Assembly (NCBI GenBank): GCA_025349965.1
Contig: CP075337.1
Coordinates: 60,001 to 92,000, forward strand
Source of the DNA: Candidatus Saccharimonadota bacterium
GTDB taxonomy: Bacteria; Patescibacteriota; Saccharimonadia; Saccharimonadales; Saccharimonadaceae
DNA: 32,000 nt
Reading direction: 5' to 3'
Numbering within the stretch: the first letter of the stretch is position 1; every line of letters begins with the position of its first letter. The position numbers and the translations under genes were made by a program. Below, in pieces: positions 1,586 to 31,038 of this stretch. Below the pieces are notes generated by a model, which was given only the letters and a program-made list of their open reading frames with translations, did not search any database and was not told the DNA's origin.

Positions 1586-1621
1586 AGTACGTAGTATACT
1601 AGGGGTATGGGGATGGTGCAA
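1574..1621. promoter_or_regulatory. Overlapping divergent sigma70-type promoters sharing a palindromic -10 (TAGTATACTA)
   Basis: Plus strand: TTGACG (1574-1579), 15-nt spacer, TATACT (1595-1600), then ATG at 1607. Minus strand: TTGCAC (1621-1616), 17-nt spacer, TATACT (1598-1593), then ATG at 1585. Both imply leaderless or near-leaderless mRNAs. Confidence 0.4.
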
Positions 1622-9646: not shown

Positions 9647-9797
9647 ATCCAGAGTGCAGCGAGAGATCTAGCTCAATGACCTGCCGGCAACCAGCTTTAA
9701 AAGTAGTGGTGCCCCTTCTAGCCCAAATGGGAAAGATACGTGAAGTCTTCACTCCTTTCATTTTTTCCAACGCGGGCGGAAAGATATGTGAAAGGAG
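9643..9797 (+). promoter_or_regulatory. SAM-I-clan riboswitch (SAM-I / SAM-IV-like aptamer) with an SD-sequestering expression platform, in the metK 5' leader
   Basis: The aptamer-like core ATATCCAGAG..GAGAGA..AATGACC..CCGGCAACC...GGTGCC parallels the SAM-I consensus (UAUCaAGAG..GAGGGA..AUGAa.CC.GGCAACC..GGUGCC). The anti-SD CTCCTTTCA (9752-9760) is perfectly complementary to TGAAAGGAG (9789-9797), which contains the metK SD. It can alternatively pair with GGGAAAGATACGTGAAG (9729-9745). That element recurs as GGAAAGATATGTGAAAG (9778-9794). Confidence 0.6.
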
Positions 9798-9804
9798 TAT
9801 TTTT

Positions 9805-10838: not shown

Positions 10839-11426
10839 ATGGATAATGATAGGTTTCGCACGTCTGACAGGCGAGTGGTAAATGGTTCTTCTGAACGGGG
10901 TACTTCATCGCATAGGCAGGTGGAGGAGCCATCGGTGACGTCCGCATCATCACCCGAGCCTACTCCACGGAAATCGCGCGCGATAGTTCAAAATACTCCA
11001 GAGAAAAGGCGTCGCAATCCGCTTTGGGTGGTTGTTGCTGTTCTTGGGGTGGTGATTGTTGCGATTCTTGGTTGGCTCTTTTGGTCACAACAGCAAAAAA
11101 CGACAGGTATTGACTCAAGTAAATATCAGGCGGTCTTCCTTTCAAATGGTCAGCACTATTTTGGCAAGCTAACGGTGATGAGCGATGACTATTTTAAGCT
11201 TTCGGATGTATACTATCTCGAGCAAGCTAATAAAACTGACAGCGAGACAAACGCGAACACAGTACAGCAGACTCAAGTTGAGCTCCGCAAGCTTGGCGAA
11301 AAAGAAATTCATGGTCCTGAAGACACTATGATTATTTCGCGCGATCAAGTGCTTCTGTATGAGAATCTTACAGATAAAAGCCAAGTTGTAAAATCAATTG
11401 ATCAACAAAAGCAACAAGCTAAGTAG
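10839..11426 (+). CDS. Single-pass membrane protein, function unknown
   Basis: A Ser/Arg/Pro-rich N-terminus, a TM helix (LWVVVAVLGVVIVAILGWLFW), then a ~110-aa extracytoplasmic domain. Good SD. Confidence 0.55.
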   Translation: MDNDRFRTSDRRVVNGSSERGTSSHRQVEEPSVTSASSPEPTPRKSRAIVQNTPEKRRRNPLWVVVAVLGVVIVAILGWLFWSQQQKTTGIDSSKYQAVFLSNGQHYFGKLTVMSDDYFKLSDVYYLEQANKTDSETNANTVQQTQVELRKLGEKEIHGPEDTMIISRDQVLLYENLTDKSQVVKSIDQQKQQAK

Positions 11427-11428
11427 TG

Positions 11429-12079
11429 CTATTTAAGCGAGTTGATATACTTCTCCCAGTTCTGCTGGGAGATATTTTTTTGCGATTTAATAAGCACGAG
11501 TGTCTTGCCTTTTATAAAGAGGACAGATTGGGGGCCTTTTGCGGAGGTGCCAATGAAGGCGCCTGTATTTCCAATTTTATCTGTAGCGTTGAATGCTTTG
11601 GCCATTTCTTGAAGTGCCTGAGAGGGGTTTGCCTGAAAACTCTCCGGTAAAGGCTGCTGGCTAACGTTAATGGTAGTGCCTTCGATTGCATCGAGAAAAG
11701 CGAAAACAGGTGAAGCGTCCGGCGGGCTGACACGCCTCCAGCCACCAAGTGAACTAATAGATTTTCCGGCCGGGAGAACGGTGTCATAGTTCGGACGCTC
11801 GCCTTTAGGTTGTAAAACAGCAATGACAATAACGGCGAGAATAATAACAGCGAGACTTGCACTGGCAACAATCCGTGTTTTTTTAGAAACCTTCTTGAAC
11901 CGAGTAAGGGCGGGGTATAAAGACGTTTGTTTTTTCGGTTGTGTAATTTGTTGCGGGCGACGTATCGGTTGCACTGCCGGTTTTTGCTCAACAACAGGAC
12001 GTACCGGCGCGCTTGGTCGTGTCGGCGGTACGGGCTTCCTCTGCACCCTTGGTTGTTTCTCTAAACCATCAAAATCCAC
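11429..12079 (-). CDS. Single-pass membrane protein with a proline-rich N-terminus, function unknown
   Basis: GTG start. A Pro/Gln-rich cytoplasmic region, a TM helix (IVASASLAVIILAVIVIAVL), then a ~125-aa extracytoplasmic domain. Lies 31 nt downstream of the 668-aa surface-protein gene on the same strand. Confidence 0.5.
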   Translation of the reverse strand: MDFDGLEKQPRVQRKPVPPTRPSAPVRPVVEQKPAVQPIRRPQQITQPKKQTSLYPALTRFKKVSKKTRIVASASLAVIILAVIVIAVLQPKGERPNYDTVLPAGKSISSLGGWRRVSPPDASPVFAFLDAIEGTTINVSQQPLPESFQANPSQALQEMAKAFNATDKIGNTGAFIGTSAKGPQSVLFIKGKTLVLIKSQKNISQQNWEKYINSLK

Positions 12080-14285: not shown

Positions 14286-15149
14286 ATGGGTAGGAGTGTA
14301 TATAAAAACGTGAAAAAAACAGTCACATTACTTACTGTAGTGCTGAGCTTTGCTTCAGTGGTGTTCTTTGGGTCGCTTGTGGGTGCCGTGACTTCAAGCG
14401 GTGGTGCACAGCCCTATAAGGCAGATGGCAAAATTGATAACGGCACAATCGTTCAGCTCACCACTAAAGACTCGGGGCGCGTAAAGGTTGCCAAGCAACA
14501 GGAGCTCCAGAATATGTTCGGGGTGACGATTGACCGTGGTCTCTTACCATTTACAATGTCGAACGAAGGCTCGGAAGGTGACGTTTATGTTGCGGCCTCT
14601 GGAACGTACAATGTCTTGGTAAGCACGCAGGCGGGTGTTATAAAATCGGGTGACTACATTACCCTCTCTGCCATTGACGGTATTGGCATGAAGGCCGGTA
14701 CAGAAGAAAAGACGGTATTTGGGCGCGCAAACGCAGGCTTTGACGGCACAGGGGTGGTACTCGGTACTGTCACACTCAAAGACGTCAACGGTAAGGAAAA
14801 TGATGCGGTGAAGATTGGTACGATTCCGGTGACAATTAACATTCAGCGCAACCCTAATATAAAGAGTACAAAAACGAAAGTACCCGAGTTCCTTGAGCGG
14901 ATTGGGCAAGCAATTGCAGAAAAAGAAGTGAGCGCGCTTCGCATCTATTTAAGCCTCGGTATTACTGCGGTGAGTATTATTGCGGCAATCGCGATCCTTT
15001 ATGCGGGTGTGCGTAATAGTGTTATTTCAATCGGTCGTAATCCAATGTCTAAAAAGTCGGTATTCCGGGCGTTGATGGAGATTATTTTGACGAGTATTCT
15101 TATTCTCGTAATTGGTCTCTTTGCGGTATACTTATTATTAAGGTTATGA
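14286..15149 (+). CDS. ATPase-operon gene 1: signal-peptide protein with a ~190-aa extracytoplasmic domain and a C-terminal two-helix membrane hairpin; unknown family
   Basis: N-terminal VTLLTVVLSFASVVFFGSLVGAV and a beta-rich middle region. The C-terminus is LRIYLSLGITAVSIIAAIAILYAGVRNSVISIGRNPMSKKSVFRALMEIILTSILILVIGLFAVYLLL. Extended -10 TGCTATACT at 14261-14269. Sits where Fo genes are normally found. Confidence 0.55.
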   Translation: MGRSVYKNVKKTVTLLTVVLSFASVVFFGSLVGAVTSSGGAQPYKADGKIDNGTIVQLTTKDSGRVKVAKQQELQNMFGVTIDRGLLPFTMSNEGSEGDVYVAASGTYNVLVSTQAGVIKSGDYITLSAIDGIGMKAGTEEKTVFGRANAGFDGTGVVLGTVTLKDVNGKENDAVKIGTIPVTINIQRNPNIKSTKTKVPEFLERIGQAIAEKEVSALRIYLSLGITAVSIIAAIAILYAGVRNSVISIGRNPMSKKSVFRALMEIILTSILILVIGLFAVYLLLRL

Positions 15150-15916: not shown

Positions 15917-16440
15917 GTAGTGCCAATGTAGCTGTTTTTGGAAGTTATCTTTTGCCCTCAAGCGTTGCAACGGGGCGTGATCTTGCGCACCTTTTGATGG
16001 AGCTTGAGCGAATTGATAACGAAATGACGGCTGCGGCGGTGCATCATGATACTGAGGGTGAGAACCAAAATGAAAATAAAGAGGTTTTTATCCCCGATCT
16101 TGTTCATGAATTTTTAGAGAAAAATGAATTCTCTCTCGACAACACTAACGATCGAAGCGAAATGATTACCCAGCTACGTCTTCTAAAGCGAAAAGCTCCC
16201 GTGGTACATATGGCCTTTGCTGCAGAAGCCGACTCGTCCATACTTGGCGAGCTTGTAAATTGGTTTCGTGACTCGGTGCATCCGCAGACTATTCTTGTAG
16301 TTGGCTATCAACCAGCTTTGGTTGCGGGCGCGTATATTCGTACGCCAAATCATATTTATGATTTGAGCCTACGTTCTGCTTTTAAGCAGGGGCGAGAGAA
16401 GCTTCTCGGTGAATTGGAGGCGTTACGTGGGGACAAGTAA
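15913..16440 (+). CDS. F-type ATPase delta (OSCP)-like subunit, divergent
   Basis: The C-terminal half APVVHMAFAAEADSSILGELVNWFRDSVHPQTILVVGYQPALVAGAYIRTPNHIYDLSLRSAF follows the OSCP/delta pattern (v.v.sA..l....i...l....v....vd..l.gG..i..g....D.S). Positioned immediately before alpha. Confidence 0.55.
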   Translation: MSSANVAVFGSYLLPSSVATGRDLAHLLMELERIDNEMTAAAVHHDTEGENQNENKEVFIPDLVHEFLEKNEFSLDNTNDRSEMITQLRLLKRKAPVVHMAFAAEADSSILGELVNWFRDSVHPQTILVVGYQPALVAGAYIRTPNHIYDLSLRSAFKQGREKLLGELEALRGDK

Positions 16441-17872
16441 AGTCTTTGACGAATGCGTTGAAAAGGGTGCACCAGTCGGTGAGATCATTGGACTTGATGC
16501 GTTCATGGTAAAGGTGAAGGGGCTCCAGCCCACAAATGTGCACGCCTTGGTGCGTTTTGAAAATGATGTTCGCGGCTATGTGCACCACGTCTATGAAGAC
16601 TACGTCATGATTATGAAGATGGATCCAACTACGCTGACCATTGGGATGGTATGCGTTGTTGAAAGTGATGACATGCAGACGAAGGTAGGGAAGAATTACG
16701 TAGGGCGTGTTATTAATGTGTTCGGTGAGCCAATTGACGACAAGGGTCCGATTGAGCCTGATGATAAGTGGGACGTTTTCCACTCTGCTCCAATGCTTTA
16801 CGAGCGCGAGCTCCTTGATACACAGCTTGAAACCGGAATTACGGTACTTGATATTAACTTTTCACTCGTGCGCGGACAGCGCATGGCGGTACTTGGTGAT
16901 GGTAAGGTAGGAAAGACTGCACTAACAACGCAGATTGCAATCAACCAGAAGAACACTGATATCACAGTGATTTACGTATTGATTGCCAAGCGACAGCGTG
17001 ACGTTGCGCAGTTGGTTGACCGTCTTGAGAAAAACGGCGCCATGGAAAAAGCAATTATTATTGTGACAAACATGTTTGAGTCGCTTGTTCTCACTTATCT
17101 TGCGCCATATATCGGTGCGGCGCATGGTGAGTACTTCTGGCAGAAGCTCGGCATAGATACACTGGTTATTTACGACGACCTTACAAGTCACGCGCAGGCG
17201 TATCGTGAAATCTCGCTTATCGCGGGTGTATCTCCGGGCCGTGACTCATATCCGGGTGACATGTTCTATACGCACTCGTCATTGGTTGAGCGAGCGGGAC
17301 GTATTGCCTCTAATCATGCCAGCCAGACAATTCTGCCAATTATTTACGCTCCAGGTGGTGATATTACTGCCTATCTTCCAACCAACGTGATGTCTATGAC
17401 GGACGGTCAGTGGATTCTTGATATGAAAGTCTTTAAAGATACGATGCGTCCGGCGGTGAGCACAGGTCTCTCTGTGACGCGCGTGGGTGGTGTTGGTCAA
17501 AATAGTCGCCAAAAGGCGTTGGCGGCCGCGCTTAATAAAACACTGGCTGGGTACCGTCAGGCTGAAGAGTATGCTCACTTCGGTACGGAACTTTCCCCTG
17601 AAGCGCAGGCTGACTACGATAAGGGTGCAATGCTCTTCAAGGCAATGAATCAAGAAATTGGTGAAAATTATAATGTGATGGAGCAGCAGTATATCCTTGA
17701 TATTATTCTCAACTCCGAGCCAGATGACATTCTCGATATCCAGAAGATGAAAGAGCGCGTGCATGAGTACGCCGAGAAAACGGTTGAGAAGGATGATCAT
17801 AGCAACTTTGAGGCACTTCGCGATGCGCTGAAGGCTGAAATCGCCACCAAAAAAGAGGTGAAAAAGAAGTAG
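16409..17872 (+). CDS. atpA: F1 ATPase alpha subunit (divergent)
   Basis: P-loop GDGKVGKT, YDDLTSHAQAYREISLIAGVSPGRDSYPGDMFYTHSSLVERA, GDITAYLPTNVMSMTDGQ, and Arg-finger region LSVTRVGG. The start may instead be GTG 16427 (smaller overlap with delta). Confidence 0.9.
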   Translation: MNWRRYVGTSKVFDECVEKGAPVGEIIGLDAFMVKVKGLQPTNVHALVRFENDVRGYVHHVYEDYVMIMKMDPTTLTIGMVCVVESDDMQTKVGKNYVGRVINVFGEPIDDKGPIEPDDKWDVFHSAPMLYERELLDTQLETGITVLDINFSLVRGQRMAVLGDGKVGKTALTTQIAINQKNTDITVIYVLIAKRQRDVAQLVDRLEKNGAMEKAIIIVTNMFESLVLTYLAPYIGAAHGEYFWQKLGIDTLVIYDDLTSHAQAYREISLIAGVSPGRDSYPGDMFYTHSSLVERAGRIASNHASQTILPIIYAPGGDITAYLPTNVMSMTDGQWILDMKVFKDTMRPAVSTGLSVTRVGGVGQNSRQKALAAALNKTLAGYRQAEEYAHFGTELSPEAQADYDKGAMLFKAMNQEIGENYNVMEQQYILDIILNSEPDDILDIQKMKERVHEYAEKTVEKDDHSNFEALRDALKAEIATKKEVKKK

Positions 17873-17873
17873 T

Positions 17874-20076
<2,203 letters not shown>

Positions 20077-20077
<1 letters not shown>

Positions 20078-20391
20078 TGGCCGAAGAGCAGACGCCAGCT
20101 GAAGTGGTTGAGAAGGAAAACATTTCCCCTCAAGCAGCTGATACCCGCCCGCAAATGGAGGTGAAGATATACGCCCCATTCCGCGTGTACTATGAAGGCA
20201 CTGGCTACAGTGTGAGCGCTAAAAATGAAGTGGGGCCTTTTGATATTCTTCCCATGCACCGTAATTTCCTTTGTATGCTTGTGCCGTGTGACGTAAAAGT
20301 CCAAACACCCGAAGGCGAGAAGATTGTCCCTATCAAGAAAGCTTTAATGCATGTTAAAGCAGACCGCGTTGTTATTTTTGTAGACGTTTAG
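20077..20391 (+). CDS. atpC: F1 ATPase epsilon subunit, short form (beta-sandwich only)
   Basis: 104 aa. MEVKIYAPFRVYYEGTGYSVSAKNEVGPFDILPMHRNFLCML fits the epsilon N-domain (G.fgiLp.H). No C-terminal helical hairpin. TAATG overlap with atpD. Confidence 0.7.
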
Positions 20392-21461
20392 TTCGCTACG
20401 AAATAATCAAATGAGAAAGTCTGATTAGCCGGTGCTGCGTTTGCAGTACAAATACTAAAGTTGGCGTTAGTGCGTGTCACGTAATATTGTGTTTGGCCGG
20501 CGGCCTGTCCTACGGGGCTGACAATTACTCGTGGTTGGCGGTCAAACGGACGGTTGAAGTTGACTTGGCCAAAGCAGCCAGGTGTTGGCCCATTTCCAGT
20601 CTGGATATTAATCGTTCCAGAAGTATCGGAGCCGCTAATTGAGAGCGAGCCGCCACTTCCAAGTACACTGTTGTTAATAGCGCCACGCCCGGGGGTTGGG
20701 CCGGTAAAGCCGATATGGTTTGGCACTTCAAGCTTAGCATTTCCACTTAGAATAAGATTTGTAACAGTGAGTTGGTTGGCGGTTACTGCACCACTGAAGG
20801 TGGTTGCACCAGATACATTAAGATCACGCAGCGTCGTCCCGCCTTGTACGGCGAGCGTATTTTGCACCTGAAGGGTCTGTGTCTGTGTTTGTCCTAGATT
20901 TGCAGCACCTGAAATGGTAATACTCGGCCCTTGGATACTCCCGCCAACTTGAAGATTGCCGGCAATATTTGCGCTGCCACGCATGAGCGTTTGCCCTGCA
21001 ATGATTGCGTTACCTTGAATGGTGAGTGTTTGAGAGTTGTTGCCGACGGAAACGTCAGTATTGGCGAGCTGTTCAAGTGTTTTTTCGGCAAGCTCTTGCG
21101 TGGCGATATCGATTTTCGGATTGGCTTTCTGGTTATTGATGTAGTTAACGACGGTAATTGCCCCCGCTACAATAAGGAGGAGTGCAAAAAACAGGAAGTA
21201 GACGTTGATCTTCCTAAGAAATCGCTTAATTGGTGAAACTTTTTTTACAGGAACTTCTGTTGGGGTTTTCCCTTCGGCTGCATCCTGCTCGGCTTTTTCA
21301 GCATCAAGATCTTCCGGCGTACGGCTGAGGGCATCTGCTGGAGACGACTCGTCCTCGTCAAGATTGCCGCCCTCAAGGTTGCTCGAAGAAGACTCATCAG
21401 GAGTAGCTGACGACGGGGCTTCTTTTACTTCTTCATCTTTGGTAGTTTTGTCTTCGTCCAT
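20388..21461 (-). CDS. Type-II anchored surface protein: acidic cytoplasmic N-terminus, TM helix, beta-helix-like repeats, small C-terminal lectin-like domain
   Basis: Acidic/Ser-rich residues 1-80 and TM helix VYFLFFALLLIVAGAITVV. Degenerate repeats follow (IQGNAIIAGQTLMRGSANIAGNLQVGGSIQGPSITISGAANLG...). The C-terminus FGQVNFNRPFDRQPRVIVSPVG...YYVTRTNANFSICTA...FSFDYFVAN resembles the H-type lectin pattern (weak, by eye). Confidence 0.55.
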   Translation of the reverse strand: MDEDKTTKDEEVKEAPSSATPDESSSSNLEGGNLDEDESSPADALSRTPEDLDAEKAEQDAAEGKTPTEVPVKKVSPIKRFLRKINVYFLFFALLLIVAGAITVVNYINNQKANPKIDIATQELAEKTLEQLANTDVSVGNNSQTLTIQGNAIIAGQTLMRGSANIAGNLQVGGSIQGPSITISGAANLGQTQTQTLQVQNTLAVQGGTTLRDLNVSGATTFSGAVTANQLTVTNLILSGNAKLEVPNHIGFTGPTPGRGAINNSVLGSGGSLSISGSDTSGTINIQTGNGPTPGCFGQVNFNRPFDRQPRVIVSPVGQAAGQTQYYVTRTNANFSICTANAAPANQTFSFDYFVAN

Positions 21462-21537: not shown

Positions 21538-22278
21538 ATGCGAAAAGGGAAGTTTCAATTAGGAGCAAAGGGTCTGCTACTTGCTGTAGCTGTTTTTGCC
21601 GTTGCCGTGGGTGGTGTACAGACGGTCTTTGCGGTAACTTCAAGTTCTGAAAACTACCAGCTTACGGAAACGCAATTTAATGGCGGTACGGTAGCTGAAG
21701 GCTGTTCTGAGAAATATTGTACGCAGGCCTCTATTGGCGATACGAGCAGAACAACGGGGAAGAGCTCAGCGGCGTTTGACCCGAAACCGGAAGATGATCC
21801 GGTGTTGGAGGTGATTGTTGATCCTGGCGAATCAAATCTTGGAGTGCTGACAACCGAGCATACCGCCACAAAAACACTGATTGTACGTGTTCGTAATAAT
21901 TTGAGTGAAGGGTATATTGTACAGATTGTTGGTAATGCGCCGAAATTTGGCAATCACTCACTCAAAACAACCAGCACTCCCGAAGCATCAAAGCCGGGAA
22001 CGGAGCAATTTGGTATAAATGTTGTTGCTAATACAACACCGTTGATTGGTGCTGCACCGGCGCAAGTGCCGGGCGGGCAAGGAGTATTTGGAAGCGCAGT
22101 AGATGGCTATAATACACCTAATGTATTTAAGTATGCGAGTGGTGATGTTATTGCAAGGAGCACCAGTGCAACTGGAAGAACAGATTATACCGTCAGCATG
22201 GTGGTGAATATTTCCAACAATACTCCAGCCGGAAAATATACGGGCGATTTTGCCGCCATCGTTATCCCAACCTACTAA
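21538..22278 (+). CDS. Secreted WxL-like (tryptophan-less) surface protein, paralogue A (small)
   Basis: Signal peptide LLLAVAVFAVAVGGVQTVFA. Shared family motifs RNNLSEGYIVQIVG, PGTEQFGINV and VFKYASGDV. C-terminal strand NNTPAGKYTGDFAAIVIPTY-stop. Extended -10 TGCTACAAT at 21516-21524. Confidence 0.6.
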   Translation: MRKGKFQLGAKGLLLAVAVFAVAVGGVQTVFAVTSSSENYQLTETQFNGGTVAEGCSEKYCTQASIGDTSRTTGKSSAAFDPKPEDDPVLEVIVDPGESNLGVLTTEHTATKTLIVRVRNNLSEGYIVQIVGNAPKFGNHSLKTTSTPEASKPGTEQFGINVVANTTPLIGAAPAQVPGGQGVFGSAVDGYNTPNVFKYASGDVIARSTSATGRTDYTVSMVVNISNNTPAGKYTGDFAAIVIPTY

Positions 22279-22367
22279 ATCTGTGGAAAAACTAACCGTA
22301 TTTTTTGCTTAAAATATGGTGAAAAGAGCATTTGCAAAATCTGTGGAAAACTTTTATACATAATGTA

Positions 22368-22396
22368 TTGTACACCCATACTGATAATGCTAAAAT
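22368..22396 (+). promoter_or_regulatory. Candidate promoter of paralogue B
   Basis: TTGTAC (22368-22373), 17-nt spacer, TAAAAT (22391-22396). The 13-mer ATAATGCTAAAAT (22384-22396) recurs upstream of the next gene (24140-24152). A 13-nt palindrome ATACATAATGTAT (22356-22368) abuts the -35. Confidence 0.45.
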
Positions 22397-22468
22397 AGCG
22401 ACGTAACCCTTCTATTTCTATTGTGATTTCAGAGGGAGCAGAAAAATAAACAACAATTAAGGAGACAT

Positions 22469-24043
22469 ATGAGTACATTTACACTCAAGTCAATCGCGCA
22501 ACGCGGATCCATGCTTGTTGCGGCGGCAGGCCTTTTGGCAGCTACCTTCGCACCAGCAGTATTTGCGGACGCGCTCAATCCATTGACCGAACGCTCTTTG
22601 CTACTAAGTAGCTCGGCGCCAGGTTGGCAGGATACGGACGGTTCTGGTTATTCAGAAGCGAATCCAAACCCAGGAGCAGCAGGGTCTGGTGGTACTATCC
22701 CAGGCCACTATGCACCAGCAGGTTCTGGTGCGAATGGTCGCAAGACTGGACAAACATTTAGCTTCCGTATTAGCACCGCTGCTACAGAAAAGGCAATTAA
22801 GGCATTCACACTACAGTATTGTGTTGAGGCTGCAGGTCTTTGTGCAGCACCTGGTGATAACGACGGTGACGGCGGCACTCGCGACAGCAACGCAACCGGT
22901 CTTGCTAAGAAGAAATCCGACCTAGAAGTTAACTATGGCACGGATGCCGATGCTGGTGTAGACTTCAAGATCTATGCAAACAACACAGAAATCGATTACA
23001 CTGGCTGGGAGCTCAAGTCTTCTAACAAGGAAGACGCCGCACATACACGTGCAAAGACTGGTAAGGATAACTTTATCACTCTCCAGACATCAGGTGACGG
23101 AATCGACAACGTGCCTGCGAACGCACAAATTCGTATTGTATTCCTCGCAACAGAGAACAAGTACATTACCAACCCAGGTTCTGGCTCATTCTTCGTAAAG
23201 ATGAATACTTTTGATACTAATGATACAACCCCAGCAGATCACAGCCCTGCTGAATCAAACACACACCTTATCGATGGCGGTGTGACTGTGGCTAATGTAA
23301 TGGCTGATTCAATTCACATTACAACCAAGGTCTTGGAAACTATGCAGTTCTCAGTTGGAACTGAAAACCCTGACCAGAAGGAAGTAACTCTTCCTGCTAC
23401 GCACGGTACTTGTGATGCTATTACAACATCAACAGGCAACCGTCTTCAGCTCGGTAACGTAAATGCTGAAAGCTCACTTGAGACCGGACGTGGATTTGGC
23501 GTAAGCTCATTCTGGCGTCTATCATCTAACTCATCTGGTGGTGCATCAGTCTACTACTCAGGTGAGACACTTACTAACACCGTAGGTGACATGATTGCAC
23601 CAATCGGTGGCAACACTCCTGGCACCGAAACGCTTAGCCTTCCGGGTACAGAGCAGTTTGGTCTAGCATTCCAGAGTCACGGTGCGGCATACAATGCATC
23701 AACTCCAGAAACTAACCCACACTCTGCATCATTTGAGGCAATGATTGGTTCAAATAGTGCATTCCGCACTCCAAACCTCTATGTTCTTAATAAGGCTGCG
23801 GCTTACGACGAGGGCGATGGTTCACTCGGTGTTCTAGGTCAAGGTGGCGAAGCTGCAACTGCGAAGTTCGCATTTGACCGCGGAAGCCTCACTAGCCCGG
23901 TTGCAATTGCAGACAACCTTGGAACTGGCGGTGTTCTTACTTGTGAAACTGCTAAGATGCGCTATGTAGCTAACATCGCAGCAGATACACCAGCTGGTGT
24001 ATACACAACAAAGATTAACTATCTTGCAGCCCCTCAATACTAG
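22469..24043 (+). CDS. Secreted WxL-like surface protein, paralogue B (large; candidate major, highly expressed subunit)
   Basis: Signal peptide MLVAAAGLLAATFAPAVFA. Motifs ERSLLLSSSAPG, GQTFSFRIS, SSNSSGGASVYYSG and PGTEQFGLAF. C-terminal ADTPAGVYTTKINYLAAPQY-stop. Strong SD (AAGGAG 22459-22464). Codon choice looks expression-biased by eye. Has its own terminator. Confidence 0.6.
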   Translation: MSTFTLKSIAQRGSMLVAAAGLLAATFAPAVFADALNPLTERSLLLSSSAPGWQDTDGSGYSEANPNPGAAGSGGTIPGHYAPAGSGANGRKTGQTFSFRISTAATEKAIKAFTLQYCVEAAGLCAAPGDNDGDGGTRDSNATGLAKKKSDLEVNYGTDADAGVDFKIYANNTEIDYTGWELKSSNKEDAAHTRAKTGKDNFITLQTSGDGIDNVPANAQIRIVFLATENKYITNPGSGSFFVKMNTFDTNDTTPADHSPAESNTHLIDGGVTVANVMADSIHITTKVLETMQFSVGTENPDQKEVTLPATHGTCDAITTSTGNRLQLGNVNAESSLETGRGFGVSSFWRLSSNSSGGASVYYSGETLTNTVGDMIAPIGGNTPGTETLSLPGTEQFGLAFQSHGAAYNASTPETNPHSASFEAMIGSNSAFRTPNLYVLNKAAAYDEGDGSLGVLGQGGEAATAKFAFDRGSLTSPVAIADNLGTGGVLTCETAKMRYVANIAADTPAGVYTTKINYLAAPQY

Positions 24044-24065
24044 ATCTCTGGTACTGTATGATTAA

Positions 24066-24099
24066 TTAAAATATGGTCGCGTATGCGACCATATTTTAA
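24066..24099 (+). terminator. Strong hairpin terminator after paralogue B
   Basis: 15-bp perfect inverted repeat TTAAAATATGGTCGC (24066-24080) / GCGACCATATTTTAA (24085-24099) with a GTAT loop. The GC-rich core is followed by ATTTTAAT. Confidence 0.7.
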
Positions 24100-24179
24100 T
24101 GGTAATCGATGCTCTTTTCTGCCTGTTCGCTCTTCTTATATAATGCTAAAATTAATCTATAAGATTAGTAAGATAAGAG

Positions 24180-25541
24180 GTGGATGTGAAGATTATATTA
24201 AGTACCTTGATAGTAGTTGCTGTGTTATCTACGGCTTTCTACGCTGTAAACTTTAAGTCGAATGTCGAAGCGGCGTCAAATATTTCACAAAAACTAGTAA
24301 ATTATAATTCCACAAATACGGCCATCTCTACTATTAGTGGAAATTTATATTCATATGTATCTGACGATGGCAACTTCGCGGCCTGGAACTCGGCCTCTCA
24401 TGACGTTGTCACCGGTGATACCTCTTCTGGACCTGTTGTCTATTTACGAGATTTACGATCAGGTGATGCGGCTATCGCGAGCATGGGCGAGAGCGGCGTG
24501 GTGTCTAGTGAAGCTGAGTTTGCCGTCAGTCGTACGGGTCGATATGTAGCTTTTTCTAGCAGAGCACTAGATGTAGTCGGTGATCCAGACGTGTCATTAA
24601 GACCAGGTCTTCACCTTTACTTGAGGGATATGCTACTAGGTACCACTCGTCTTGTTGATCAAAGTGCTGCCGGTATTCCAGGCAATTTACCGTACGGGGG
24701 TCAAGCCATTGCTAGAAGTGTTAGTGATGATGGTAGATATGTAACATTTTATACAGAGTCGACGAATCTATTAACTTCGAGTACTGGTGGAGGGGGCTTC
24801 TTCTTTGTTAAGGATATGCTAACCGGTGCGGTGATAAATCCAACCGCTTCAAATACGGGGTTAAATTCTAACGCTTCAACACTTGGCTATGTACTCTCTA
24901 GTTGTGACGGTTCTTTTGTTGTATTTGGGGCGGCCGCTACAAACCTCACGGCACAAGATAATGGTAATAGTAATACATACTTTGTTGATCTGAGGACTGG
25001 TTATAATATTACCAACCTTACCCATCTGGCCAACAAGGGTGCAAGACCTGTCTCTATATCGTGTAATGGACGCTACATATTACTATCGTCGCAATCTACT
25101 AATCTTACCGCGGACACAGTGTCTGGTGTGGAAATCCATCTCTTTTTGTTAGATAGGATGACGGGTGTATATGAGCTGGTCGATAAGTCAAGCGCAGGTG
25201 TTGTGGGGACGAAGAATGTGTATGGCTACGGCAGCAGAAGAACAGTCAGTGATAATGGAAGGGTGGTCTTTTTTGCTAATGATGCTAATTTAATATCTCC
25301 CGCTTCGCCATATAGTCTTGAAGTCTATGTGCGTGACACGGAGAGTGGTACGACGGAGGCACTTCCTGTTGACTCGGCAGGTATAGAGAAAGGCTTGGGG
25401 ACGACAACCACGACCGTAACTAAGTCTCTTTCGATCTCTTCTGACGGAAAGTCTATAGTGTATAATTCTGTGGCTAGCGGTCTTATCCCGGGTGTCGGGG
25501 CTTTGGGGGGTATGAAAGTGGTCCTGGGTAGATTTAACTAG
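24180..25541 (+). CDS. N-terminally anchored 7-bladed beta-propeller protein (PD40/TolB-like repeats)
   Basis: TM/signal IILSTLIVVAVLSTAFYAV.
- Seven repeats of S-x-[DN]-G-x-x-[VI]-x-[FW]: SDDGNFAAW, SRTGRYVAF, SDDGRYVTF, SCDGSFVVF, SCNGRYILL, SDNGRVVFF, SSDGKSIVY.
- Five of them (SDDGRYVTF, SCDGSFVVF, SCNGRYILL, SDNGRVVFF, SSDGKSIVY) are followed by an x-[ST/A]-N-L-like segment: STNL, ATNL, STNL, DANL and SGL respectively.
- The more likely start is GTG 24186 (SD AAGAGG 24174-24179). Confidence 0.65.
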   Translation: MDVKIILSTLIVVAVLSTAFYAVNFKSNVEAASNISQKLVNYNSTNTAISTISGNLYSYVSDDGNFAAWNSASHDVVTGDTSSGPVVYLRDLRSGDAAIASMGESGVVSSEAEFAVSRTGRYVAFSSRALDVVGDPDVSLRPGLHLYLRDMLLGTTRLVDQSAAGIPGNLPYGGQAIARSVSDDGRYVTFYTESTNLLTSSTGGGGFFFVKDMLTGAVINPTASNTGLNSNASTLGYVLSSCDGSFVVFGAAATNLTAQDNGNSNTYFVDLRTGYNITNLTHLANKGARPVSISCNGRYILLSSQSTNLTADTVSGVEIHLFLLDRMTGVYELVDKSSAGVVGTKNVYGYGSRRTVSDNGRVVFFANDANLISPASPYSLEVYVRDTESGTTEALPVDSAGIEKGLGTTTTTVTKSLSISSDGKSIVYNSVASGLIPGVGALGGMKVVLGRFN

Positions 25542-25627
25542 GCTGAAATAACAAAGGCGACCGTAGCTTTCTCGCCACCCCAAGTATGGTATACAATTCA
25601 CCATAAACGTTTTACAATAGTACTGAT

Positions 25628-26707
25628 ATGAGGCATAGGGTATACAGAACGCACACTCGCGCTTCTCACTGGAGACATACTGCACCAGAGGCTATTCTTG
25701 CTCTCGTCCTTTCTTTAATGATGCTGGTGCCGCCTGCTGGTGCTGCTGCTATGCGCTTTCAACAGCGAAGCCTATATATAAATAATCCAGAGCCGGGCGC
25801 TACAACATACCACAAGGTGTCATTTCGGTACATGAGCGCTTTGCCTGTAGGGTCGCTTGATTTGCTATACTGTCTGGATCCGATTCCATACCATGCCTGC
25901 GTACCACCTCAGGGTCTCGATGTTTCACAGGCCACACTCTCCTCCCAAACGGGTGAGACCGGCTTTACGATTAAATCAAGCTCGCCCAATAGGCTGGTCA
26001 TTTCAAGGGATCCTGCAAAGATCCCGATAGACAACGAGTCTGCATATGTGTTTGATAATATTAAAAACCCAATAGATATAACACAGTCCTTTTCGATCAG
26101 ATTGAAGAGTCACGGGAGTCTTGACGCAACCGGGCCTCAGGTAGATTTTGGATCCATCAAGGGTCAAGTTACGACAGGGATTATGCTTGAGACGCAGGTT
26201 CCACCTATGTTAATATTCTGCCTCGCAGAGGAGGTTGAGAGTGGTTGCGAACAAACAAGCGACACACATTATAAAGAGCTAGGTCAGCTTAGTTCGAGTG
26301 CAACACTATCTACTCAGTCTCAGATGGCGGTTGGAACAAATGCATCTAGGGGGTTTGCTATTACTATTCATGGTACACCGCTAAGTGCTGGTGTTAACAC
26401 GATAAACTCGCTCTCAACTCCTACTGCAAGTATTCCTGGTAGTAACCAGTTCGGTATTAACCTCGTAGAGAATCAAACGCCTGTAATAGGCCAGAATCCT
26501 GAGGGTGAATGGGCTAACGCTGTGGTGTCAGAGGGGTATGATCAGTCAGATAAGTTTAAGTATGTACCTGGGGATGTCGTAGCATATTCTCCCAATGTAA
26601 GTCTTATGAAGAAGTTTACAGTCAGCTATATGATTAATGCATCACCGAATCTACGTGCTGGTGTATATAGCACAACAGTCACTTATATAGCGAGCGGTCG
26701 CTTTTAG
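25628..26707 (+). CDS. Secreted WxL-like surface protein, paralogue D
   Basis: Signal peptide ILALVLSLMMLVPPAGAAA. Motifs QRSLYINNPEPGATTYHKVSFRY, GTNASRGFAITIHG, PGSNQFGINLV and KFKYVPGDV. C-terminal NLRAGVYSTTVTYIASGRF-stop. Confidence 0.6.
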   Translation: MRHRVYRTHTRASHWRHTAPEAILALVLSLMMLVPPAGAAAMRFQQRSLYINNPEPGATTYHKVSFRYMSALPVGSLDLLYCLDPIPYHACVPPQGLDVSQATLSSQTGETGFTIKSSSPNRLVISRDPAKIPIDNESAYVFDNIKNPIDITQSFSIRLKSHGSLDATGPQVDFGSIKGQVTTGIMLETQVPPMLIFCLAEEVESGCEQTSDTHYKELGQLSSSATLSTQSQMAVGTNASRGFAITIHGTPLSAGVNTINSLSTPTASIPGSNQFGINLVENQTPVIGQNPEGEWANAVVSEGYDQSDKFKYVPGDVVAYSPNVSLMKKFTVSYMINASPNLRAGVYSTTVTYIASGRF

Positions 26708-26761
26708 TGATATAATCTGCTTATACTTATAATCAAAATTTTGTGAGGGATTTACATTAAT

Positions 26762-27820
26762 ATGAAACGTTTTGCGAGCATTTTTACCGCATTCATAATT
26801 TCCGCTTCTGTTGCACTTGGCTCATCTGGCATTGCCAGCGCTCAATCTTCAGCCGCATTGAGCATTACACCTAGAAAGAATTATACGGTCGAGGCAGGCA
26901 AGACAGTTCGAGACACACTCAATATTCGTAATATGGATAGCGAACGTACACTTAGCTTGAATCTTAACATTGTTGATTTTTCGTTTAAAGATGATGGTGG
27001 TACTCCGGACCTTATGCTTGCCGAAGACGCACCGCAGACTGCATGGTCTATCAAACCGTTTGTTAAGCTTTCTGCGAAAACACTCTCGATTAAGCCGCGA
27101 GAAAGTAAGACTGTTGATGTATCGTATACTGTACCAAAGGGTCAGGGCGCCGGCAGTTACTACAGTGCAATTGTGTACTCCTCTGGCACACCGGAGGGCG
27201 GAAACGTGGGACTTAGTGCGTCAGGTGTGACTCTTGCGTTTGTTACGGTTCCAGGAACGGTAAAGCAAGATCTCCAGCTTGAGAAATTTGGTGCGTATCG
27301 TGCAAAGGCTGGTGACCGTGCAGCTAAGTATCTCAATTTTGCGATTGATAAGCCGCAAAATATCGCCTATACACTTAAGAATGAAGGTAATGTCGCAGAA
27401 AGCCCGACAGGTACAATTACACTGCGACACATGTTTGGACAAGAGATAAAAATTAATGATATAAATCCACAAAGCTCACTTGCTCTGCGCGGTCAGACAC
27501 GAACATTTGTTTCATGTATTGCAATAAAAGATGAGCACCTTGAGTTGAGCGGGACTGAACGCTCGAACGCTAAGGTGTGTACTGATCCTGGTCTATGGCC
27601 TGGCCTCTATACAGCCTCTATCGACGCTTATTATGGGCAAAACGGCAACCCTACAAAGGAAATTACAGGCACCACTTGGTTCATCTACGCCCCTCTCTGG
27701 TTCCTCATCCTCCTCGGTATCCTCATCCTCGCAATTGCTTTCGCAATCTGGCGCATTGTCTCAAAGACAAAGAACAAAAAGCGCAGCGTTAAGGGTAAGA
27801 AATCAGCACTTCGTCGCTAG
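26762..27820 (+). CDS. DUF916/DUF3324-like two-domain cell-surface protein with a C-terminal TM anchor (CscA-like), paralogue E
   Basis: Signal peptide ending IASA.
- Domain 1: LSITPRKNYTVEAGKTVRDTLNIRNMDSERTLSLNLNIVDF...GAGSYYSAIVY.
- Domain 2: LQLEKFG...IAYTLKNEGNVAESPTGTITL.
- C-terminus: APLW, then a TM helix, then the polybasic tail KTKNKKRSVKGKK.
- Extended -10 TGATATAAT at 26708-26716. Confidence 0.6.
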   Translation: MKRFASIFTAFIISASVALGSSGIASAQSSAALSITPRKNYTVEAGKTVRDTLNIRNMDSERTLSLNLNIVDFSFKDDGGTPDLMLAEDAPQTAWSIKPFVKLSAKTLSIKPRESKTVDVSYTVPKGQGAGSYYSAIVYSSGTPEGGNVGLSASGVTLAFVTVPGTVKQDLQLEKFGAYRAKAGDRAAKYLNFAIDKPQNIAYTLKNEGNVAESPTGTITLRHMFGQEIKINDINPQSSLALRGQTRTFVSCIAIKDEHLELSGTERSNAKVCTDPGLWPGLYTASIDAYYGQNGNPTKEITGTTWFIYAPLWFLILLGILILAIAFAIWRIVSKTKNKKRSVKGKKSALRR

Positions 27821-27846
27821 AAAGAGTACTCCGGTAGGAAAAGCAC

Positions 27847-28794
27847 ATGGCAGTCCGACTACCAAAAAATATGCACAGAATGACCCTTGATAAAAAGGGG
27901 TCATTCTTGCTATTTTTGGCAGCAATGACATTGGCTATGGTAACATCTGCTGTATTTATTACATCAAGTGCACATGCTTTGACGCCGCTTCCTACGCCTG
28001 ATCCAAAACCGGGTTCTTTTGGTGTAGAGGCAACGAAGGTAAAAGAGCCGCCTAAGGTTGGTGCGAGCATTGCCGTCCCGGGTTCTGGTGCGTCGTTTTC
28101 AAGTTCGCCAATTACGGTAAGTGGAACCTGTCCGAATGATTTGTTGGTACAGATCTACAATAATAATGTAATGGTTGGCTCTGTGCTCTGTACTAACGGA
28201 AGCTTTTCTATTCAGGTAGGGCTTTTTGCGGGTACAAATGAGTTAAGCGCGGTTGTGTATGATGAACTTGATCAGGCCGGGCCTGTTTCGAATATCGCCA
28301 CCGTTACATATACCGATACCCGTTTTACCGCCTTTGGTCAGCTTTTAACGCTTACAAGTAATTATGGGCGTCGTTCAACGCCAACCGGCACGCAACTTAC
28401 ATGGCCGATGCAGCTTTCAGGCGGTACTGGTCCGTATGCATTTAGTATTGATTGGGGCGATGGCTCTAAGGCAGAGCTTAAGAGCCAGTCACTCGCCGGG
28501 CTTGTGTCATTGGCGCATGCGTATAAAAAAGCAGGCATCTACACCGTAAACGTTACTGCAACCGATACAAATAACGTCACTGCATTTTTGCAGGTAATCG
28601 CGGTGTCGAGCGGTAAAGTAGAGCCCGAGCCAACCGAGAAGAAAGTAGCGGTTGATCGAACGACTATCTTGTGGGTTCCGGCGGCAATTGCATTGGCATT
28701 GCTTGTTCCAGCCTTCTGGCTTGGGCGTCGTAGCCAGGTTATATCTATACGCAAGAAGATGCTCAAAGAGCGCGATAATTACGTTCAAAAATAG
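27847..28794 (+). CDS. Surface protein with an Ig-like domain and a PKD domain, C-terminal TM anchor
   Basis: Signal peptide FLLFLAAMTLAMVTSAVFITSSAHA. Ig-like block ITVSGTCPNDLLVQIYNNNVMVGSVLCTNGSFSIQV. PKD signature GTGPYAFSIDWGDGS...HAYKKAGIYTVNVTATD. C-terminal TM ILWVPAAIALALLVPAFWL plus a basic tail. Confidence 0.7.
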   Translation: MAVRLPKNMHRMTLDKKGSFLLFLAAMTLAMVTSAVFITSSAHALTPLPTPDPKPGSFGVEATKVKEPPKVGASIAVPGSGASFSSSPITVSGTCPNDLLVQIYNNNVMVGSVLCTNGSFSIQVGLFAGTNELSAVVYDELDQAGPVSNIATVTYTDTRFTAFGQLLTLTSNYGRRSTPTGTQLTWPMQLSGGTGPYAFSIDWGDGSKAELKSQSLAGLVSLAHAYKKAGIYTVNVTATDTNNVTAFLQVIAVSSGKVEPEPTEKKVAVDRTTILWVPAAIALALLVPAFWLGRRSQVISIRKKMLKERDNYVQK

Positions 28795-28837
28795 CAGTTA
28801 TTTTCTCGTCATAATACCTCAAGCATAAGGGGTGTTA

Positions 28838-28846
28838 TGGTACACT
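28838..28846 (+). promoter_or_regulatory. Extended -10 promoter element (TGGTACACT) for paralogue G
   Basis: TGn plus TACACT, 28 nt upstream of GTG 28874. GGAG (28861-28864) lies between them as the SD. Confidence 0.3.
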
Positions 28847-28873
28847 AATATACAGTATGTGGAGTTGTTGTAG

Positions 28874-30010
28874 GTGAGGACTGTATTGTTCACAATCCAC
28901 ACAAAACGGGTAGCGTTGCTATTTGGTTTTTTGGGTATTGTGATTGCGGGCGTTTTAGGCGCAGCCGCGCTTGTTTCGGCTGAACAACTCCCAGAGCGAT
29001 CCGTTCAGCTGTCCAGCGCTTCAGCCGCGGCAACAGGCGTGACGTACTCCTTTGACTTTACAGTAAACTCACTAGCCGGAGCCTTTGTAATCGACTTCTG
29101 TACCACACCACTTGCGGGTACGGCGTGTGTTGCGCCGGCTGGCATGACGGTTGCCTCTTCAACAATCAGTACTCCAGGCTATACCAAGGTTGCTATGGAT
29201 GCTAATACGCTTGCGGTAACTGCCGATATCGCCGCTTCGGCAAAAGCCACCTTTACTATTGACGGAATTACCAACCCCTCTGCGTCCGGACTCGTGTATG
29301 CGCGTATCGTTACCTACGACACACCCACAAACGCGCAAACCTATACATCTGACTCGTTGGGGACGGGGAGCGTAGATGGCGGCACGGTGGCGTTTTCTAT
29401 TACAGATACAATTGCAGTCAGCGGCTCTGTGATGGAGAGTGTTACATTCTGCGTATCAGGTGTGCAAATTGGTGCCAACTGTAGTGGCGTACAGCGTCCA
29501 GTACTTAAGCTTGGTGAGCAAATAGGTGATGTAATTGCATTGACACCGTCAAAAGTAAGCGAGGGTATTATTTACGCTCAGGTTTCAACAAATGCTGCTA
29601 ATGGGGTCACGATAAACCTAAAGAGCAGTGCTCTAAATTGCGGCGGCCTTTTGCGTGCCGGTGACTTAACCGCCTGTGACATAGCGCCCGCTCTTGATCA
29701 AGATATCACTGAAGGCCAGCCGAAATTTGGCGTGAAGGTTGCATCAGCGGCCGACACAGGTGCAAATCCAAATGGTATGCTTCGTGCAGCGGGTGGTTCT
29801 ATGTATGGTGCGTCACGTTTTTCTTTGAATTTTATTAACGGCAATGCTAGCGGAGTTACCAGCACCTTCGGTGATCCGTTTCTTGATACAAATAACGCCC
29901 CAGCGAATAATAAAAATGTCGCCCTCACTTTTGGGGCGAGCGTTGCGAATAATACGCCAGCCGGGCTCTATTCGGCGGATATTAGCCTTATTGCGGCAGG
30001 GAAGTTTTAG
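28874..30010 (+). CDS. Secreted WxL-like surface protein, paralogue G
   Basis: GTG start. Signal peptide LLFGFLGIVIAGVLGAAALVSA. Motifs ERSVQLSSASAAATGVTYSFDFTV, STNAANGVTINLKS and EGQPKFGVKV. C-terminal NNTPAGLYSADISLIAAGKF-stop. The stop overlaps the next start (TAGTG). Confidence 0.6.
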   Translation: MRTVLFTIHTKRVALLFGFLGIVIAGVLGAAALVSAEQLPERSVQLSSASAAATGVTYSFDFTVNSLAGAFVIDFCTTPLAGTACVAPAGMTVASSTISTPGYTKVAMDANTLAVTADIAASAKATFTIDGITNPSASGLVYARIVTYDTPTNAQTYTSDSLGTGSVDGGTVAFSITDTIAVSGSVMESVTFCVSGVQIGANCSGVQRPVLKLGEQIGDVIALTPSKVSEGIIYAQVSTNAANGVTINLKSSALNCGGLLRAGDLTACDIAPALDQDITEGQPKFGVKVASAADTGANPNGMLRAAGGSMYGASRFSLNFINGNASGVTSTFGDPFLDTNNAPANNKNVALTFGASVANNTPAGLYSADISLIAAGKF

Positions 30011-31038
30011 TGAAGAGCGGCATGCGGCAATTTGTGAGAGCGGCCATTGTAGCAGCTCTTTTTGCTTTCCTAGCCGTGCCCGTTGTGTCCGCTGCCGATT
30101 CCAAGACTGCCAATACGCTCAAAGTGTCACCCGTCCGCACTGATATAGAGGTACCTGCAGGTGGCAAGAAGGTAGTGCAAGCGACAGTGACAAATTTGGC
30201 GGATGCCCCCGTCAAGGTTACGCCAGTAGCGAATGACTTTATTGCTGGGGATGAGCGTGGTACGCCAGCACTCATTCTTAATCAAGACCAGTATGCACCA
30301 ACGCATAGCCTGAAGCGGTTTATGTCACCTCTTTCTTCGGTGACAATTCCCCCAAAGGGCTCAAAAACGATTAATGTAGTCATTACAGTACCAGTAACGG
30401 CGCAGGCGGGTGGGTATTTTGGTGCTGTTCGCTTCATGCCTTCAGATCCGGATGAGGGTGGGCAAGTCAATCTTAGTCCGAGTGTTGCGTCGCTTATCCT
30501 CTTAAAAGTTCCAGGTGCAATCGTAGAAGATCTCACTGTGACTACCTTTGAAGTACAAAAAGCGGGTGCTGCAGGATTTTACTTCCAAGATCCAAGCGAT
30601 CTTCAGGTGCTGGCTCGCTTTGAAAATAAAGGAAATATCCAGACCGCGCCGCTTGGTGTAGTGCAAGTCCGACGCGGCAACGATGTTGTATATGAGACAA
30701 ATTTCAATGCCAACACTCCACACGATATGATTTTGCCAGATAGTGCCCGACGTTGGGATGTGCCCCTTAAAGATATGGGCAAGATCGGCTATTACACTGC
30801 CGTGGCGACTTTCACGTACGGAGAAAAAAATACTACCGTCACAATAGAGAAATCATTTTTAGTGGCGCCGCTGTGGCTAGTGCTAGTCGTACTGGCTGTG
30901 CCTGTTCTGCTTATCGGCGGCGGTATTTTAACGGGTATCCTCGTCGTACGCAAAAAGCGTAAGGGTGGCGGGCGTCGGACTCCAAAACGCTCTCGCGGAA
31001 AAGCTAGTCTTGTACCCAAGAAACGGTTTGGTCGCTAG
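30010..31038 (+). CDS. DUF916/DUF3324-like two-domain cell-surface protein with a C-terminal TM anchor (CscA-like), paralogue H
   Basis: Signal peptide AAIVAALFAFLAVPVVSA.
- Domain 1: LKVSPVRTDIEVPAGGKKVVQATVTNLADAPVKVTPVANDF...AGGYFGAVRF.
- Domain 2: LTVTTFE...VLARFENKGNIQTAPLGVVQV.
- C-terminus: APLW, then a TM helix, then RKKRKGGGRRTPKRSRGK.
- Same architecture as 26762-27820. Confidence 0.6.
   Translation: MKSGMRQFVRAAIVAALFAFLAVPVVSAADSKTANTLKVSPVRTDIEVPAGGKKVVQATVTNLADAPVKVTPVANDFIAGDERGTPALILNQDQYAPTHSLKRFMSPLSSVTIPPKGSKTINVVITVPVTAQAGGYFGAVRFMPSDPDEGGQVNLSPSVASLILLKVPGAIVEDLTVTTFEVQKAGAAGFYFQDPSDLQVLARFENKGNIQTAPLGVVQVRRGNDVVYETNFNANTPHDMILPDSARRWDVPLKDMGKIGYYTAVATFTYGEKNTTVTIEKSFLVAPLWLVLVVLAVPVLLIGGGILTGILVVRKKRKGGGRRTPKRSRGKASLVPKKRFGR

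Follow-up and report, generated by a model that had tools for sequence, protein, structure and literature searches.

Related surface systems

Pam pili are thin surface fibres of ultra-small bacteria belonging to the candidate phyla radiation (CPR), described in Ca. Mycosynbacter amalyticus (Troman et al., bioRxiv 10.64898/2026.03.03.709456). According to this preprint, two thin M. amalyticus filaments, PamA (55.3 kDa, two Cys pairs) and PamB (38.7 kDa, three Cys pairs), are helical by cryo-electron microscopy (cryo-EM), and the Pam C-terminal domain takes up the linker of the neighbouring subunit; the donated strand is this inter-domain linker, strongly conserved in PamA and PamB, and not the N-terminus. 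Other components were given roles on the basis of AlphaFold: PamT is the tip and is described without a linker, PamE is the base pilin, PamC and PamD are PapD-like chaperones anchored by a transmembrane (TM) helix, and PamR is an RbmA-like terminator and anchor. A tail-fibre-like gene and ATP synthase genes are conserved beside the pam operon (bioRxiv 10.64898/2026.03.03.709456). Here we report on a 32,000-nucleotide stretch of DNA (hereafter the window) from Candidatus Saccharibacteria bacterium TM7i, a cultivated Saccharibacterium, in which a locus of eight genes (A to H, positions 21538-31038) is very probably the Pam pilus operon of this organism and would encode, in a CPR bacterium that is monoderm, a pilus of the donor-strand-exchange type that is assembled with the help of chaperones and without an usher.

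The second system to which the locus can be compared is the WxL/Csc cluster of Lactobacillales. Such a cluster comprises two kinds of WxL protein, one small and one large (the latter with its WxL domain at the C-terminus), and the WxL-interacting protein (WxLIP), which consists of DUF916 (PF06030), DUF3324 (PF11797) and a TM helix; in an AlphaFold prediction, a hairpin strand of WxLIP completes the beta-sandwich of the WxL domain (Hassan & Williamson, PMC9772566, PMC10599100). A preliminary description of the window had taken the eight genes for a tryptophan-less relative of these clusters and was not aware of such loci in CPR bacteria; since then the system has been published under the name of Pam pilus, and there are models for it in NCBIfam. 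The three Pam models of NCBIfam 20.0 (NF058578, NF058579 and NF058581) stem from the 2026 Pam preprint, which never mentions WxL (bioRxiv 10.64898/2026.03.03.709456). The Pam system is already described, with curated hidden Markov models, and the TM7i locus is a further, unstudied instance of it.

A probable Pam pilus operon in TM7i

All eight open reading frames (ORFs) were found on the + strand, confirming the co-directional genes for exported proteins, with their signals and coordinates, of the preliminary description, and all motif strings quoted in it are present in the translations. The products A to H each begin with an N-terminal hydrophobic segment (signal or anchor), and E, F and H have an additional C-terminal TM helix with a polybasic tail. 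The locus proteins (accessions UTX51414-51419 and KI440_00450) are annotated throughout as "hypothetical protein".

Two products matched equivalog models of the solved filament system above their cut-offs. A (21538-22278, + strand, 246 aa), the single-domain tip pilin PamT, aligned end to end with NF058579 (CPR_pilus_PamT) at 268.8 bits (cut-off 240, E 3.6e-80). F (27847-28794, + strand, 315 aa), the RbmA-like terminator and anchor PamR, matched NF058578 (CPR_pilus_PamR) at 373.5 bits (cut-off 300); it consists of a signal peptide, immunoglobulin (Ig)/PKD domains (PF00801, 25.4 bits, cut-off 23.5) and a C-terminal TM helix (residues 271-294). NF058581 (CPR_Pam_pilin_C, cut-off 55 bits), the model for the C-terminal domain of Pam pilins, was matched by A (162.6 bits) and by D (157.4 bits), a PamE-like pilin of 359 aa with 4 Cys (25628-26707, + strand). 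Among the remaining pilins, the size and Cys content of B (22469-24043, + strand, 524 aa, 54.1 kDa, 4 Cys) fit the large shaft pilin PamA, and those of G (28874-30010, + strand, 378 aa, 37.9 kDa, 6 Cys) fit the small shaft pilin PamB. The membrane-anchored chaperones are the PamD-like E (26762-27820, + strand, 352 aa, isoelectric point (pI) 9.7), a homologue of H, and the PamC-like H (30010-31038, + strand, 342 aa, pI 10), which has a WxLIP/DUF916-like ectodomain of two Ig-like domains.

The gene order A-B-D-E-F-G-H equals PamT(289)-PamA(287)-PamE(285)-PamD(284)-PamR(282)-PamB(280)-PamC(277) of M. amalyticus in reverse accession order. Both organisms, which belong to the CPR/Saccharimonadia lineage, have these seven components in identical order, with PamA and PamB of like size and Cys count, TM-anchored chaperones, a TM-anchored RbmA-like PamR, and ATP synthase and tail-fibre-like neighbours. 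TM7i differs in being another species, with Leucobacter as host, whose Pam system is known here from the genes alone, and in having gene C, which probably encodes a PD40-like propeller, between PamA and PamE. A promoter and terminator scan gave the same counts as in shuffled sequence, so operon boundaries cannot be claimed. Sequence searches of PDB with B, G and C and with the H-family and PamT-family profiles returned nothing meaningful; the Pam filament structures were apparently outside the searched copy of PDB, or too divergent.

Pilin paralogues

The preliminary description had called A, B, D and G paralogues, and profile comparison of their families with hhalign (probabilities of 87.6-99.9%) bears this out. 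A and D share 37% identity over the C-terminal domain (blastp E 8e-22; families 99.9%), followed by D and G (E 4e-11; 99.7%), B and G (E 2e-4; 99.5%) and B and D (E 1e-3; 97.4%); A-B and A-G are not significant by blastp and reach 95.1% and 87.6%, respectively, as families. Judged from these sequence comparisons, the paralogy of A, B, D and G, like that of E and H, is far above chance.

A consists of a signal peptide, a Cys56/Cys61 pair and the C-terminal Pam pilin domain. In B, an N-terminal beta-sandwich domain is joined to the C-terminal Pam pilin domain by the linker strand ITTKVLETM (284-292), and in D the corresponding linker between the two domains is QVPPMLIFC (190-198); the linker strand of G is VMESVTFCV (186-194). 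Few segments of B, D and G are as well conserved as these linker strands. Neither A nor G contains a Trp residue.

The AlphaFold2 (AF2) model of A, built with 59 homologues, has a pLDDT of 71.8; for residues 90-246 the block means are mostly about 80-95, with one dip to 60. Foldseek matched this model mostly to chaperone-usher pilin domains (PapGII pilin domain, CsuE, CsuA/B, CfaB, FimA, FimG and PapA), and no WxL chain was among its top 50 matches.

Two further motifs of the pilins were observed. Just before the C-terminal domain of A, residues 89-94 (21802-21819) form a VLEVIV strand similar to [VIM][LM]E[TS], the linker motif that the shaft pilins have; in the monomer this strand may fill the groove by self-complementation. 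Directly after the signal peptide of B, D and G (22574-22600, 25760-25786 and 28994-29020), and absent from A, stands (E/Q)RS[LV]x[LI], with a conservation of 0.76-0.94 in the B and G families and an RSL core that recurs in D. This motif may be the first strand of the N-terminal domain, or else a recognition element.

Membrane-anchored chaperones and WxLIP

E and H are paralogues with an APLW motif, TM helix and polybasic tail, as the preliminary description had it, and the stop codon TAG of G overlaps the start codon GTG of H as TAGTG. They share 30% identity (blastp E 1e-20), and their ectodomain families align at 99.8% by hhalign. Both have a signal peptide, two Ig-like domains, a TM helix opened by APLW, and a basic tail; the hydrophobic window covers residues 303-337 in E and 276-316 in H, with the helix at 288-321 in the AF2 model of H, and the basic tails follow.

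The likeness of E and H to CscA, claimed at the outset, held in profile and fold comparisons. PF06030 (DUF916, cut-off 27.3 bits) scored 23.8 bits for H and 16.3 bits for E (E-value 0.01), both under the threshold, and was matched in 51 of 51 H orthologues with a best E of 1.3e-11; some of these carry the NCBI name "DUF916 domain-containing protein". For PF11797 (DUF3324) there was no Pfam match in window proteins or H orthologues. As comparators we extracted 46 WxLIPs and 74 WxL proteins by a scan of metagenome contigs for the QIDKxxxYFDL signature; in a sample checked with Pfam, these scored 134-147 bits for PF06030, 145-182 bits for PF11797 and 140-244 bits for PF13731. Against 14 Firmicutes WxLIPs, the H family reached a probability of 97.6% by hhalign (E 3.7e-12) over 211 ectodomain columns across both domains, and 95.7% once signal peptides and TM helices were trimmed. 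Taken by domain, the N-domains aligned at 94.6% and the C-domains, in the DUF3324 region, at 44.7% (E 2e-4), so that of the two domains sought by the preliminary description DUF916 homology stood and similarity to DUF3324 was weak. Reversed and cross-domain controls gave at most 0.5%. The N-domain of E matched that of WxLIP at 74%, and its 99.8% homology to H ties E to the H family despite this weaker direct match. An untrimmed match of E to WxLIP at 99.8% was discounted, since the signal peptide and TM helix were in the alignment.

The AF2 model of H (51 orthologues, pLDDT 85.6) has two domains with a beta-sandwich fold and, at the C-terminus, a long helix. Searched with Foldseek against 350,542 PDB chains, its top three matches were Enterococcus faecium WxLIP (9i25_C, followed by chains A and B of 9i1y; E 4.4e-12 to 8.5e-11, TM-score 0.42/0.53), in an alignment that runs through both domains; entry 9i25 is described as "WxLIP ... 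bound to long WxL". Next came the class 5 chaperone CfaA and then Caf1M, EcpB, DraB, CupB2 and FimC (E 1e-9 to 1e-6), and RbmA was likewise among the matches. The fold comparison agreed with the preliminary description for H; for the model of A, the matches were weak ones, mostly to chaperone-usher pilins, with no WxL chain in the top 50.

The Pam chaperones have not kept NQIDKxxxYFDLK, the signature of WxLIP: the aligned segment of H, NTLKVSPVRTDIE, retains only N and D-[IL]. Their most conserved segment, GG(Q/N)V(N/G)LSAS..L, follows an AGGYFGA strand and aligns with the WxLIP hairpin region GLAIKNEYSYVVALLL; we infer that it is a candidate complementing strand. E and H are homologous to the DUF916/DUF3324 WxL-interacting protein WxLIP/CscA, and the Pam chaperones are closer to it than to any chaperone of the Gram-negative chaperone-usher systems.

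Comparison with WxL/Csc clusters

The homology of E and H to WxLIP gives weight to the reading of the preliminary description, in which the locus would encode a WxL/Csc cell-surface complex whose W-less WxL proteins, fixed non-covalently to the wall by an anchor of the CscA/WxLIP type, make up a platform instead of a fibre. E and H agree with WxLIP in sequence profile and fold, in the order of their domains, in having a TM helix at the C-terminus and in length (about 340-360 aa), and also in a basic pI as in the WxLIPs of L. plantarum and Listeria, whereas enterococcal WxLIPs are acidic. The composition of the locus, with a small single-domain subunit, larger subunits that have the C-terminal domain in common and a TM-anchored protein of two Ig-like domains, mirrors that of WxL clusters. 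In both systems, by prediction, a strand of the anchored protein completes the beta-sandwich of its partner; the predicted completion of WxL by WxLIP follows the same principle as chaperone complementation.

The partner domain itself is not recognisable as WxL. PF13731 (WxL) matched neither A, B, D and G nor 59 PamT homologues at E <= 10, a threshold at which Pfam returned only scattered noise for these homologues. The PamT family reached 3.4% against small WxL proteins by hhalign, and the Pam C-terminal domains, single or merged, reached at most 7.4% in local mode against small, large or combined WxL sets, no better than reversed controls; in global mode nothing was found. The identification of A, B, D and G as tryptophan-less WxL domains was therefore not sustained. 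The sole recurring local match was the last strand, "TPAGvYtTxIxYiA" in Pam and "Y.TTLTW.L" (motif 2) in WxL, with YSTTVTYIAS at the C-terminus of D; it is not significant, and the likeness of the Pam pilins to WxL motif 2 is at most suggestive at the level of sequence. A likeness of "TN..G[FY]x[IV]" to the WxL "DNRG..GWxL" was likewise taken as unproven, since hhalign of the domains gave results no different from those of controls.

Pfam under-detects the large-WxL form: among the comparators, a 974-aa large WxL protein (L091, 7549-10473, - strand) has no PF13731 match at E <= 1e-3, yet the large-WxL C-terminal alignment that includes it reached 99.4% against small WxL domains by hhalign.

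Other differences also separate the two systems. E and H lack NQIDKxxxYFDLK, and the locus has two chaperones and four subunits. Among A to H and X, the divergently oriented neighbour of A, a motif scan found no LPxTG near the C-termini, and the small anchored CscD of the described loci, named in the preliminary description, has no LPxTG or CscD-like counterpart. The PamT model weakly matches chaperone-usher pilins and not, among its top 50, the WxL chain of 9i25. WxL proteins of Bacilli are described as wall-bound complexes, whereas Pam proteins of CPR bacteria form long filaments, and the M. amalyticus orthologues are helical filaments by cryo-EM. A WxL/Csc complex is on these grounds an improbable explanation of the locus, if the best placed of the alternatives, and we retain the Pam pilus operon.

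The greater closeness of the Pam chaperones to WxLIP than to chaperone-usher chaperones points to a common monoderm ancestry for Pam and WxL/Csc. Tentatively, and with the odds against it, Pam pili and WxL/Csc clusters could be two branches of one ancient monoderm assembly system, usher-less and chaperone-assisted, in which WxLIP would be a donor-strand chaperone of the PamC/D type, not a host-binding adhesin, and the WxL domain a highly diverged acceptor domain of the Pam type. The W-x-L strands would then correspond to the [FYV]-x-[IV] and Y-x-T-x-[IV]-x-[YL] strands of Pam pilins. The chaperone half of this proposal is well supported and suggests a role of WxLIP as a chaperone that donates a strand; the subunit half, which is not backed by sequence profiles, is unproven. 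If the proposal were true, strand exchange would be expected of WxL proteins, and they may form oligomers. The Pam preprint does not draw the link through the chaperone, a link that ties a new CPR pilus to the long-enigmatic surface clusters of Firmicutes.

Conservation of the locus

A scan with the H-family profile, with one genome per GTDB species, gave 181 relatives, of which the best 80 were taken for counts of loci; gene content was scored by ORF calling and blastp. Almost all of these 80 loci are from Saccharibacteria or Saccharimonadales metagenome-assembled genomes (MAGs), and M. amalyticus is not among them. The order atpD-atpC-X(-)-A-B-D-E-F-G-H was found in 31 loci with full flanks, with shortened versions where contigs end. 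H is present in all 80, G in 76, F in 70, D and E in 67 each, B in 64, A in 58 and X in 56.

Such conservation bears on a further alternative, namely that the products are unrelated, independent adhesins or S-layer-type proteins which share Ig-like domains and do not assemble together. All of them are indeed exported and beta-rich. This explanation is nevertheless very hard to reconcile with a seven-gene order and content conserved across the loci of 80 species-level genomes, with chaperone genes that come after pilin genes (and, for G and H, an overlap of stop and start codons), with the conservation of the C-terminal domain and linker motifs, and with the equivalog matches to components of a structurally solved filament; we give it little credence. 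The survey of gene neighbourhoods proposed by the preliminary description came out as expected for a Pam pilus operon, the seven-gene core and the ATP synthase genes recurring in related Saccharibacteria loci. Its view of the gene set as one unit applies to this syntenic core and not to C, which was found in only 8 of the 80 loci.

Five Pam loci (L023, L025, L034, L021 and L069) lie on MAG contigs labelled Dongiaceae, Chloroflexi, Acidobacteriota or Parcubacteria. All of them are most likely on mis-binned contigs of Saccharibacteria and are not true non-CPR occurrences.

Comparison with chaperone-usher pili

Pam shares with Gram-negative chaperone-usher pili (Pap, Fim, Caf1, CFA/I and Csu) the two-domain PapD-like chaperone fold, the pilin domain with an incomplete Ig fold, the logic of donor-strand complementation and exchange, and a tip subunit without donor strand. 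The locus could accordingly be read as a classical chaperone-usher pilus acquired horizontally, and the matches of the H model to CfaA, Caf1M, EcpB, DraB, CupB2 and FimC, together with those of the A model to PapG, Csu, CfaB and Fim pilin domains, would agree with this. However, these matches are at only 9-17% identity, there is no detectable sequence similarity to Pam, and WxLIP is structurally nearer to H than any chaperone-usher chaperone is. Pam has no usher or outer membrane, and no usher or other outer-membrane protein was matched among the locus proteins by Pfam or NCBIfam; each of the eight products has another explanation. The Pam chaperones are tethered by a C-terminal TM helix, the Pam pilins have an extra N-terminal domain, and the donor strand is, per the preprint, an inter-domain linker instead of an N-terminal extension. 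The relatives found are almost all Saccharibacteria. On all these grounds, horizontal acquisition of a classical chaperone-usher pilus is very improbable.

A sortase-dependent Gram-positive pilus was rejected, as there are no LPxTG motifs in A to H or X and no Pfam or NCBIfam match to a sortase among the scanned proteins of the locus and its flanks.

Proposed assembly of the TM7i Pam pilus

If the locus is a Pam pilus operon, assembly would begin with the export of every component by Sec. The pilins, with A at the tip, G and B in the shaft and D at the base, would each end in an incomplete Ig-like C-terminal domain, and the membrane-anchored H and E would keep this domain open by inserting a strand that lies where the first of their Ig domains ends, for which GG(Q/N)V(N/G)LSAS..L is the inferred candidate. 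The linker strand of the next pilin ([VIM][LM]E[TS]..F[SC]) would then displace the chaperone strand, and the fibre would grow from the membrane. F (PamR) would close the base with its N-terminal strand and tether the fibre by its TM helix. In TM7i the fibre probably contacts the actinobacterial host (Leucobacter).

Several points weigh against this identification. In TM7i it is based on genes, synteny and predicted folds, and the formation of a filament, the exchange of linker strands and the order of subunits would follow the M. amalyticus preprint, in which the assembly model is itself largely AlphaFold-based. For B, D, E, G and H, the putative orthology to the M. amalyticus proteins is drawn from synteny, from size and from the number of Cys residues. 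B and G have diverged far enough to score just under the NF058581 cut-off of 55 bits (50.3 and 37.7, respectively). In the AF2 model of A the N-terminal third is disordered, and the Foldseek matches of this model are weak (E >= 4e-3). The VLEVIV strand before the C-terminal domain of A is a difference from M. amalyticus and conflicts with the linker-less PamT of the preprint. Finally, the describers of TM7i ascribed all of its appendages to type IV pili and identified no other filament in the genome (PMC9894109).

TM7i is one of few cultivated Saccharibacteria, and a complete Pam operon in it runs counter to the view that it has type IV pili only (PMC9894109); a second type of fibre needs weighing for its pili-like appendages and for host attachment. 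The locus genes are not mentioned in the Southlakia transposon sequencing (Tn-seq) paper.

Accessory, neighbouring and other genes

C (24180-25541, + strand, 453 aa) is an exported protein with an N-terminal anchor and seven PD40/TolB-like repeats of the form S-x-[DNT]-G-x-x-[IVLA]-x-[FWLY], spaced about 55-60 aa apart. Its match to PF07676 (PD40) is weak (E 0.035), and from the repeats it probably folds as a 7-bladed propeller. In TM7i it lies between the PamA-like B and the PamE-like D; the rarity of its homologues and their varying positions in the eight loci that have one mark it as a lineage-specific accessory gene outside the conserved core.

X (20388-21461, - strand, 357 aa) has an acidic cytoplasmic N-terminus, a TM helix at residues 80-111 and an ectodomain that is beta-rich and repetitive, with a weak match to bactofilin-like proteins. 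It adjoins the PamT gene in the same orientation in 56 of the 80 loci; its counterpart in the preprint is the "tail fibre-like protein" beside the pam operon. Also upstream of the locus, and conserved there, are genes for the F1 ATP synthase alpha, gamma and beta subunits and a small ORF in the epsilon position (together 16409-20391, + strand). The top NCBIfam matches here were atpA, ATPsyn_F1gamma and atpD; the small ORF (20077-20391) has no NCBIfam match and is called epsilon by position alone.

Elsewhere in the window, five ORFs have no NCBIfam match at E <= 1e-5: 12111-14117 (- strand, 668 aa), 1607-2953 (+ strand), 10839-11426 (+ strand), 11429-12079 (- strand) and 14286-15149 (+ strand). 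A LexA-like repressor fragment (2946-3380, + strand; 61.6 bits, under cut-off) precedes a 591-aa protein (3380-5155, + strand) whose C-terminal part is weakly like class A beta-lactamase (50 bits, far under cut-off). A SAM (S-box) riboswitch (RF00162, 57.5 bits) was found at 9642-9742 (+ strand), directly 5' of metK; the longest metK ORF (9676-10782) overlaps it, and the real start of metK is probably more downstream.

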